From positions 1 through 5,653 of the IMG/VR virus record IMGVR_UViG_2547132273_000024: DNA of 5,653 nt; one strand, written 5' to 3'. Of this stretch, positions 1 through 3,000 are shown piece by piece; positions within the stretch are counted from its first letter, which is position 1; each line of letters begins with the position of its first letter. The position numbers are program-made. This DNA comes from a virus (taxonomy: Duplodnaviria; Heunggongvirae; Uroviricota; Caudoviricetes).

Positions 1-3000
1 ATGAAGCGGTATTATCACGATGCGTTTTTATTAGGTTTATACGCATTGCTTACCCAAATACATTTGTCGGTGGCTCGCGGCATTAGCGCGCAGTCTGAAC
101 TCCGGTGCTGGTTGCGTCAGAAAGGGACGCTTGGCCTGATAGAACAAATATTGTGCTCAGCGCGGTCAAAGCGCCATAAGCAGAAGATCCCATTAATCAA
201 ATCTCTGTATTATAATCTGCGTGGGAAAAACTATCTTACTGAAAGTGAATGGATTTTATTAATTAAACACCTGCAGTTTATGCGTGACTTTATTGTTCAT
301 GGTGAAGTAAATGAGGATGCTTTGATAAATGCCCGGCTTGAAATTTGCTATTTTTTGCTAAAAATTTGGCACAGACTGAACGTCAATTATCTTGCTCAGC
401 GATTAGCAAATCATGTCGAGCATTTTAATGAAAGTGAGTATCATGCCCACTTCAGCGTGCGCCAGATAACGTCCGTTATAACGGACTGGGCAGTTTTAAA
501 AGATAATGAGATATTTTGATGAACCTCGCCCGTGGGTATTGATGAATAAAAATAATCTATTGGAAAATGTCCTGGTGTTCAGGGCGTGTCCAGGGATGTT
601 TATCCTGTAAGAGAATTACGAAAATATCACATCCTTCATCGCCGGGATGGATTTTTCAGCCGGAGGTATCTTATCTTCCGGGTTTAACCAATGGCTATAT
701 AGGAAATACCCTGTACAATCAAATTCATGCTGGATATCGCTTATTACCCATATTTATAATCAATAACAAGCTTACCGCAATGATATCGATTTTTATTTGA
801 TAACGTGATTGAATATCTCATAGTAAAAACAGGGTATGAGACGTTGGTCAATGAATAATCGAAAACTCCCCCGTTCACTACGGGGGAGGTTCAGGATTAA
901 ACGTTTTTACGTTCGATGGTCTGTTCGCCCCAAAAAAGCGAATCTTTATCGGTTTTAGCAAAGGCTTTAACTAACACTTCATCGCTACCTTCTTCCCAAA
1001 TCTTTTCCGCCATTTTTTCGTCGTACCCGGCGACTTCGAAAATGGCCTCGGCTATTTCCGGCGACGTATTGCGCAGAGATGCCCATTCACCGACGTGATG
1101 AGCTTTCGCTTCTTGAGTTGGCATGCGTATCCTCCTGTTGAAGATTAGCCGTTAAGTTTAACTGCCAGACCTGCGACATATTCCCCTTGATAACGAGCAA
1201 TAGACAGTTCTTCCTGGCTGGGCTGGCGTGAACCGTCACCGCCTGCGATGGTGGTTGCGCCGTACGGCGTACCGCCGCGAACCTGTGAAACGTCAAATAA
1301 TTCCTGCGCTGCGTAGCCAATGGGGACAATCACCATGCCGTGATGCGCAAGGGTCGTCCAGGTGGATGTGATGGTTTGTTCCTGACCGCCGCCAGTACCG
1401 GTGGAACTAAAGACGCTCGCCAGTTTGCCGTACAGTGCGCCGGAAGCCCACAGGCCGCCCGTCTGGTCGAGGAAGGTACGCATTTGACCGGACATGTTGC
1501 CAAAGCGGGTAGGTGTACCAAAAATAATGGCGTCGTAATCGGCCAGTTCTTGCGGGGTTGCAACCGGTGCAGTTTGCGTTTTACCGCCTGCTTTTTCGAA
1601 TAATTGCGGCGGCATGGTTTCCGGTACACGCTTAACGACAACTTCTGCGCCATCCACTTTGCTTGCGCCTTCAGCGACTGCGCGCGCCATCGTTTCAACA
1701 TGTCTAAGGATATGGTTTATCATTTTGAAAAATATAATTTTATTTCATCCTCCTGGTCACTTTGGGGCACGTCTGGGGCACGGGCATTAAGGACATTATT
1801 CAACATGGCAACTTGAGTCACGCTGCACTCAGGCATCCATGCACCATAAACATTGTAGACCATGCTGGCGCTGGAGTGCCCCATCTGTGATGCAATAAAT
1901 GTCGGGTTTGCTCCGGCAGATAAAGCCCAGCACGCATAGGTATGGCGTGACTGATACGCTTTACGGGATCGGATACCCGCTCTTTTTATTGCTGAATCCC
2001 ATGTCGCTCCGATGGAGCTTACCGCGTAGTTAATACCAGCCTTGTGATTCTTGCGAACGATTTGCGGACAGAAAACAAAAGTGCACTCGTGCAAAATTGT
2101 TCTTCCGTACTCGCGTAATTGAACAGTGATCTGATGCTGCCTGCTAAGACGAGTAAGCATCGCCTGGTTTTTAAGTGCTTCAATTGCTGGTGCCAGAAGA
2201 TGTATAACCCGGTTAGTGCCTGCGTCGGTCTTTGGTAGCGTAAAATCACCTATTTTTGTAAAATTTCGTCGCACTGTTATCGTGCCAGCTTTCAGGTCGA
2301 TATCCTCCCATGCAAGTGCGGCAATTTCACCGTGTCGCATCCCTGTAAAAACAGCCACTGTCCAGAGGTTTTTGGTCTGTTGATGATGGCAGGCATCAAT
2401 GAGACGGCTAAACTCATCTCTGGTCAGTGGATCCGGCACTGGTTTTGATTTCCTCAGCGGTGTTATTGAATTAAACGGGTTTTTCTCCAGATACCCGTTT
2501 TCGGCGGCAAAGCTGAACATTCCGGCTGTTGTTGTCATGTAATAGTTCACTGTGGGTACGGTTCTTCCTTTTCGGGACGTGCTGGTTTTCCTGCTTCCCT
2601 TTTCCCCGGTCAGTAAATCTTTCCTGATAAACAGCAGATCTTCTTTTGTAATCGATGACGCCAGCCTGCCAGGACCAAGCCTCGGTAGCATATTTTTCAT
2701 CACTGATTGATAACGATTTAAGGCGTTACTACTGATTTCCATTGCTTTCAGAGTAAGCCATTTCTGTGCCAGTTCACCGACGGTGATATCTTTTTTTACC
2801 AGGCCAAATAGCTTCAGGTTAGGTGAGTCAGGGAATCGCTCGGCATAATCAAACGTTCCCGTTCTGATTGCAAAGCAGACAGAAGCCCTTAACTCACCAG
2901 CGATCTTTCTGTTTTTCGGAGTATCGGGCACGCGAAGATTTTCGCGCACTCGTTTACCCCTGTACTTAAACGTTATTCGGAGTTTTCCTCCGTGATTTTC

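Follow-up and report, generated by a model that had tools for sequence, protein, structure and literature searches.

The window, by which we mean the whole 5,653-nucleotide stretch of DNA analysed here, carries yccJ, a wrbA open reading frame (ORF) whose 5' end is derived from phage DNA, and a set of prophage genes that begins with an integrase gene overlapping the start of this hybrid ORF. The features of the locus are as follows.

866..888, minus strand: intrinsic-terminator-like hairpin after yccJ (9-bp stem, 7 GC pairs, T-run)
897..1124, minus strand: yccJ, intact, 75 aa (Pfam YccJ, E = 4.6e-40; WP_001143120.1 in E. coli N96 and O104:H4)
1145..1723, minus strand: hybrid wrbA ORF, 579 nt, 192 aa, composed of phage DNA (25 nt), the att core (7 nt) and native wrbA (547 nt)
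1688..1704, no strand assigned: 17-bp imperfect att homology, CATCGTTTCAACATGTC in the window; attB = CATCGTTTCAATATGTC
1692..1698, no strand assigned: 7-bp att core or crossover region, GTTTCAA on the plus strand and TTGAAAC on the wrbA coding strand
1699..1723, minus strand: phage-derived start of the hybrid ORF, 25 nt encoding MINHILRH and the opening base of codon V9; found unchanged in the attP of free phi191
1720..3030, minus strand: tyrosine integrase, 436 aa, ending in ...KLYFSK and a stop (Pfam Arm-DNA-bind_2, PF12167, 8e-26; Phage_integrase, PF00589, 2e-17)
1731..1760, minus strand: weak sigma-70-like promoter match, a candidate only (GTGACC-18-TATATT, 9 of 12 matches), in the A/T-rich 3' end of int
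3083..3367, minus strand: excisionase of the DUF1233 family, upstream of int (PF06806, 1.2e-30, listed at 3083..3382; 'excisionase family protein' in PGAP)
3394..3411, minus strand: terminator-like hairpin upstream of xis-int (7-bp stem, 5 GC pairs, T-run)
3413..5653, minus strand: prophage early-left genes, encoding DUF4222, DUF1627 and DUF1382 proteins, an MT-A70 methyltransferase and a 143-aa HTH-like protein

The integrase, which combines an arm-type DNA-binding N-terminal domain with a catalytic domain and bears the annotation int in phages such as P13374 and Sp5, adjoins the junction with wrbA and is transcribed toward it. Over its phage part, the window shares 99-99.8% identity with P13374/phiO104, phi191 and PPwrbA_EC3734, with matches in 242 phage records. 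Among the closest known systems are P13374/phiO104, the Stx2a phage of O104:H4, and PPwrbA_EC3734, a non-Stx prophage of O145:H28, both of which match positions 1692-5653 at 99.6-99.8% of nucleotides and share the gene order of the window (int, xis, DUF4222, DUF1627, DUF1382, MT-A70); the DUF1627 gene differs in the number of a 9-nt repeat, encoding 120 aa in the window and 117 aa in O104:H4. The closest relatives include both Stx and non-Stx phages, and the late region lies beyond the window. Sp5 (VT2-Sakai) and BP-933W, which occupy wrbA in O157:H7, share with the window the integrase family, the 7-bp core, the 579-bp hybrid ORF, the overlap of its start codon with the int stop and the downstream position of yccJ, whereas the early-region gene content of Sp5 beyond xis differs. 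On the host side, a rare two-gene islet lies between agp and yccJ, unlike in the Sp5 system. The 172-aa protein encoded in this left flank had no match in PADLOC or Pfam, and an Rfam scan of the window returned no match.

The uninterrupted locus of E. coli N96, which has the same left flank and an intact 198-aa wrbA, provides the reference for the bacterial side of the junction. Window positions 1-1698 align to it with 0 mismatches and divergence begins at 1699. The 7-bp core ends where single mismatches set in, with the phage-type base at position 1699 and the bacterial-type one at 1691, in agreement with the 7-bp 'duplication due to insertion' annotated in record LC645450 and with the 7-bp att described for wrbA prophages (bioRxiv 10.1101/2024.03.06.583675). 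The junction also lies at the published 17-bp wrbA attB, CATCGTTTCAATATGTC (bioRxiv 10.1101/2022.08.08.503262), with bacterial flank on one side of the core and phage DNA on the other, and wrbA has been named in the literature as the integration site of 933W and phiO104 (including PMC6580645 for phiO104). In the free phi191 genome, the int stop is followed by ...ATGATAAACCATATCCTTAGACATGTTGAAACCATGAAGCATTAA, the attP, in which CATG-type half-sites stand on both sides of the core. The four forms that site-specific recombination between attB and attP involves were each found by exact-string matching, with no cross-hits: attB in N96, attP in phi191, the integrase-side junction at 13 loci besides the window, and the far junction in O104:H4 2011C-3493 and O157:H7 Sakai. 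At the far prophage end of the latter two lysogens, native wrbA sequence comprising the promoter, the ribosome-binding site and codons 1-17 passes into phage DNA, and the far end of Sp5 accordingly reads from the native promoter and the 5' codons of wrbA into the phage. These comparisons bear out the sequence-only reading in its main part, namely that the 5' end of wrbA has been replaced by prophage insertion, the alignment to N96 yielding both the att core and the substituted codons; its expectation that the native promoter and start would be found at the other prophage end proved correct in these related lysogens.

At the protein level, the hybrid begins with MINHILRHV, nine phage-derived codons standing in place of the first 15 native codons, and ends, in the native manner, with ...AVKLNG. 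The N-terminus that the sequence-only reading gave for native WrbA agrees with the N96 protein. Hybrid and native WrbA (N96, 198 aa) are identical from hybrid residue E10, native E16, onward, and the new N-terminal segment is 6 residues shorter than the native 5' part and unrelated to it in sequence. In the DNA, the two genes agree over 554 nt from the stop backwards, up to a mismatch at window position 1699 (hybrid nucleotide G25 against native A43). As the earlier reading had noticed, the hybrid ATG (1723-1721) shares two bases with the TGA of int (1722-1720), forming an ATGA overlap at 1723-1720. It is the first possible canonical start of the frame because an in-frame TGA lies 24 nt 5' of it (1747-1745). 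The only strong Shine-Dalgarno-like motif, AGGAGG at 1754-1749, is 25 nt upstream of this ATG and precedes a mini-ORF of its own, ATGAAATAA; at that distance it is too remote, leaving the hybrid start without a usable ribosome-binding site. In the phi191 attP, the same 25-nt string opens an ORF of 14 codons.

An in-frame start of this kind is readily met by chance. When the 150 nt of phage arm beside the core were shuffled, an in-frame ATG before a stop arose in 22% of trials, and an in-frame start in 43% when GTG and TTG were counted as well, so the fusion ORF needs no selective explanation. The junction is the specific product of recombination; the in-frame ATG itself is unremarkable.

The consequences of the exchange for the protein were assessed against family profiles. 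The hybrid scores 325.6 bits with NCBIfam NF002999 (TIGR01755), above the equivalog cut-off of 141, compared to 356.7 bits for native WrbA. Of the 200 profile positions, native WrbA covers 1-199, but the first 12 are missing from the alignment of the hybrid, which starts at 13; its score deficit is 31 bits, and the hybrid thus fails to give the full-length WrbA match that includes the N-terminal strand beta1 and the flavodoxin-type loop. With Pfam Flavodoxin_1, the score falls from 40.7 bits for the native protein to 22.8 bits for the hybrid, under the gathering cut-off of 25. The replaced native segment includes Tyr12, which lines the WrbA active site (PMC10302398); in related flavodoxin-like quinone reductases (NQOs), the counterpart of this segment is the loop following beta1, where the FMN phosphate is bound (PMC4274662). 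Given the missing profile positions 1-12, Tyr12 and beta1 loop, and given that each active site is built by three subunits of an obligate WrbA tetramer (PMC3430622), loss of FMN-dependent activity is likely; judged from its sequence, in which a usable Shine-Dalgarno motif is missing as well, the hybrid is most likely a non-functional, pseudogene-like WrbA, and the Sakai RefSeq record lists it as a pseudogene. An AlphaFold2 model of the hybrid from the single sequence, without an alignment, was uninformative at a mean pLDDT of 35. A stable, N-terminally altered protein may nevertheless be made, as transcripts over the hybrid are as abundant as in non-lysogens and the equivalog score is far above the cut-off. 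A K-12 933W lysogen was reported to be more sensitive to oxidative stress, and cured EDL933 clones to be more resistant (10.1101/2022.08.08.503262); these phenotypes are consistent with WrbA loss but are confounded by the prophage itself. The proteomic detection of WrbA in O157 (PMC5924783) was considered as evidence on the hybrid and set aside as uninformative, strain 933D having lost 933W. A literature search found no ribosome-profiling papers mentioning wrbA in EHEC.

Downstream of the hybrid ORF, yccJ begins after 20 nt, and, reading the minus strand onward from int, the hairpin at 866..888 is the first site that resembles a terminator. Since terminator-like hairpins lie only before xis and after yccJ, any transcript leaving int would cross both the hybrid gene (wrbA') and yccJ. 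The sequence-only reading had gone further and made the expression of both genes dependent on such read-through, a claim with which public RNA data disagree. In the directional RNA-seq comparison of MG1655 and MG1655::phiO104 by Berger et al. 2019 (PMC6580645, Additional file 1, raw counts), in which the prophage was confirmed to reside in wrbA, counts for wrbA were 204/183/573.5 in MG1655 and 774/840.5/1371 in the lysogen (log2FC +0.93, p = 0.21), and those for yccJ were 123/101/199.5 and 523/434.5/791, respectively (log2FC +1.35, p = 0.017, padj 0.25). The RNA of the two genes is therefore not lower in the lysogen; it is nominally 2-2.5-fold higher, a difference that is non-significant after correction (padj 0.25-0.9). 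In the Sakai time course of Bergholz et al. 2007 (PMC2241611), a microarray data set that covers yccJ and intW and from which wrbA itself is absent, yccJ (ECs1159) rose from -1.81 at 3 h to +1.87 at 8 h, i.e., about 13-fold or 3.7 log2, while intW (ECs1160) stayed within -0.22 to +0.45, i.e., 0.7 log2 (PMC2241611). Lysogen RNA that is not reduced, together with a rise in yccJ against flat int RNA, indicates that expression is not simply dependent on int read-through. We conclude that wrbA' and yccJ are transcribed in lysogens and that yccJ retains stationary-phase induction independent of int RNA.

Candidate origins of this transcription are read-through from int, the A/T-rich site in the 3' end of int and an internal promoter. 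The promoter scan found sigma-70-like sites in the region at the frequency expected from shuffled sequence, all of them weak matches, and -10-like hexamers (several at 1742-1707 and one at 1160-1155) likewise occur at chance frequency.

Of the sequence-only reading as a whole, the insertion, the native N-terminus, the overlap and, in relatives, the 5' fragment at the far end have stood, and the dependence on int read-through has not. We hold it to be very probable that a lambdoid prophage of the 933W / Sp5 / P13374 (O104:H4) lineage is integrated in wrbA and contributes its integrase-proximal end to the window as segment 1692-5653, and that the hybrid ORF is a by-product of this integration, most likely non-functional. 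In the mechanism that we propose, the tyrosine recombinase would direct site-specific recombination into an attB within wrbA codons 15-17, and strand exchange in the core TTGAAAC would join the final 25 nt of the phage arm to wrbA from codon 16. The phage arm would bring with it the int stop and an ATG that happens to be in frame with wrbA, thereby generating the 192-aa hybrid ORF, while the native promoter, ribosome-binding site and first 17 codons would be moved some 60 kb away, to the other prophage end. The far end of this prophage of about 60 kb is predicted from relatives to read ...GGACATATTGAAACCATGAAGCATTAA, preceded by the native wrbA promoter. The hybrid protein would lose strand beta1 and the flavodoxin-type phosphate loop, and precise excision would be expected to bring back native wrbA. 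As the window ends before the far end, we infer from relatives both that this particular prophage is complete and what has become of the 5' wrbA fragment in its host genome.

Insertions inside coding sequences need not have such an outcome. In e14 and phage 21, the att site lies inside icd and the phage arm continues the frame; there, the phage provides a homologous 3' end and the enzyme stays functional. In the wrbA hybrid, by contrast, it is the 5' end, with the promoter and ribosome-binding site, that is swapped for an unrelated peptide 6 residues shorter. The hybrid ORF and the wrbA junction are already known, and their anatomy here is that of the known 933W / Sp5 / phiO104 family; the description of the integrase-side wrbA junction of the 933W family reportedly dates from the late 1990s and is attributed to Plunkett in 1999.

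The junction is widespread. Among 5426 complete E. coli genomes, a 121-nt probe spanning it picked out 216, with O157:H7, O104:H4, O26:H11 and O111:H8 strains among them, and the exact hybrid protein is present in 7758 index blocks of the assembly collection. This near-invariance across 216 genomes, together with the ATGA arrangement, which has the classic geometry of termination-reinitiation, and with wrbA' and yccJ RNA that is undiminished and nominally higher in MG1655::phiO104, could be taken to mean that the in-frame start is a selected feature: the overlap of the phage ATG with the int stop would couple translation of wrbA' to that of int, averting polarity on yccJ or yielding a truncated WrbA with residual or altered function. 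We consider this improbable. Chance alone would supply an in-frame ATG to about 22% of arms, the near-identity of the junctions goes back to one recent phage lineage and not to independent conservation, the conserved profile positions 1-12 are removed, yccJ induction in Sakai does not track int RNA, and the RNA differences lose significance upon correction. A comparison with diverged relatives of the integrase was sought at 73 loci in other species (<=71% identity), 0 of which had wrbA within 2.5 kb and whose downstream sequences were unrelated; with no integrase relative beside wrbA, these loci afford no comparative test of whether the in-frame start is conserved. Were the start nonetheless a selected feature, the output of a host stress gene would be tied to the state of the prophage, and a stationary-phase and oxidative-stress operon would be rewired rather than simply inactivated.

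That MINHILRHV might be a natural N-terminal allele of wrbA which happens to adjoin a phage integrase is very unlikely indeed, even though PGAP gives an ordinary wrbA CDS (WP_000607018.1) in many genomes. The 25 nt are present verbatim in a free phage attP, the native 5' end lies at the other prophage end in two lysogens, and N96 combines an identical flank with intact wrbA. An uninterrupted wrbA encoding this N-terminus, the finding that would have pointed to such an allele, was absent: all 10 of the 10 sampled contexts of the exact hybrid protein had the integrase upstream with the 4-nt overlap, plus an excisionase. We regard the natural-allele explanation as refuted by these observations. 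An assembly chimera of a phage contig and wrbA, for which the abrupt change in identity at 1699 and nothing else speaks, has a negligible probability and is likewise refuted, as closed genomes from numerous laboratories agree base for base at the junction and the join falls exactly at the published att core.

Integration with a by-product ORF, the reading that we retain, bears on how wrbA is read in these strains. The locus is one of four standard Stx-prophage insertion loci used for O157 strain typing. Its occupancy serves as a routine O157 typing marker, and it was found occupied in 61.6% of 346 strains (PMC8309913). A 'wrbA G25>A, Val9Ile (V9I) mutation' has been reported after 933W loss (10.1101/2022.08.08.503262); this change is exactly what sets native attB (ATT) apart from the attL-type hybrid (GTT), and is thus to be expected from excision rather than from a point mutation. 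In annotation, PGAP labels the hybrid ORF as an intact 'wrbA NAD(P)H:quinone oxidoreductase' (WP_000607018.1; the O104:H4 product is 100% identical to that of the window) because its 325.6 bits exceed the equivalog cut-off, whereas in the Sakai RefSeq record the same 579 nt are the pseudogene ECs_5704 and the Sp5 prophage feature starts 32 nt inside the ORF. Pipelines therefore present as an intact quinone oxidoreductase, in hundreds of genomes, what the curated record calls a pseudogene.

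The hybrid wrbA reading frame at the integrase-side end of the prophage has been annotated inconsistently, as an intact wrbA coding sequence by PGAP (WP_000607018.1) versus a pseudogene in the Sakai RefSeq record (ECs_5704). It lies among the following features of the window:

1-519, plus strand: gene for a hypothetical protein of 172 aa (annotated in N96 as WP_000833426.1)
1145-1723, minus strand: hybrid wrbA ORF (NC_002695.2, 1245607-1246185; NC_018658.1, 3316980-3317558)
1740-1754, minus strand: consensus AGGAGG followed directly by the mini-ORF ATG AAA TAA, within the int 3' end
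3394-3411, minus strand: terminator-like GC hairpin and T-run, between the DUF4222 gene and xis
4029-4391, minus strand: DUF1627 gene
4172-4199, minus strand: perfect tandem repeat (9-nt unit GCTGCACTG, 3.1 copies) inside the DUF1627 gene
4599-4639, minus strand: 41-nt overlap of the DUF1382 and MT-A70 genes (prophage early genes)
5222-5225, minus strand: 4-nt, ATGA-type overlap of the MT-A70 and 143-aa genes (prophage early genes)

The piece of wrbA in the hybrid ORF was termed the "N-terminal portion" in an earlier study (PMC8309913); this label is wrong, as the piece comprises the C-terminal 183 codons. A preprint (10.1101/2022.08.08.503262) described a "wrbA G25>A (V9I) mutation" in 933W-free EDL933 clones and treated it as a mutation of attB. 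This base (nucleotide 25 of the hybrid, window 1699) is simply a difference between attL and attB, and G25>A in the 933W-free clones is the base restored by precise excision.

The mini-ORF in the int 3' end shares bases with the in-frame stop codon bounding the hybrid frame on its upstream side, and the ATGA-type geometry of the int/wrbA' overlap is shared with that of the MT-A70 and 143-aa genes. With the terminator-like hairpin upstream of xis, transcription from the early-left region would extend into xis-int only if termination were overcome by antitermination; otherwise xis-int would require a promoter of its own.

The DUF1627 repeat encodes the peptide PVQPVQPVQ and is apparently the source of the length variation of this gene among related prophages, whose products measure 117, 120, 123, 126 or 129 aa. 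On the bacterial side, the genes for the 172-aa protein and a 108-aa neighbour make up a small islet that separates agp from yccJ (5662-6519 in the compared locus L003). Of 5426 complete E. coli genomes, only 6 have this islet, and Pfam and PADLOC gave no match for either protein.

Relatives of the window's integrase (29-71% identity) were found in 73 species representatives (L018-L090), among them Enterobacter, Citrobacter, Kluyvera, Yersinia and marine gammaproteobacteria. Since wrbA adjoined the integrase in none of the 73, wrbA specificity appears to be confined, within the species-representative collection searched, to the E. coli/Shigella phage lineage.
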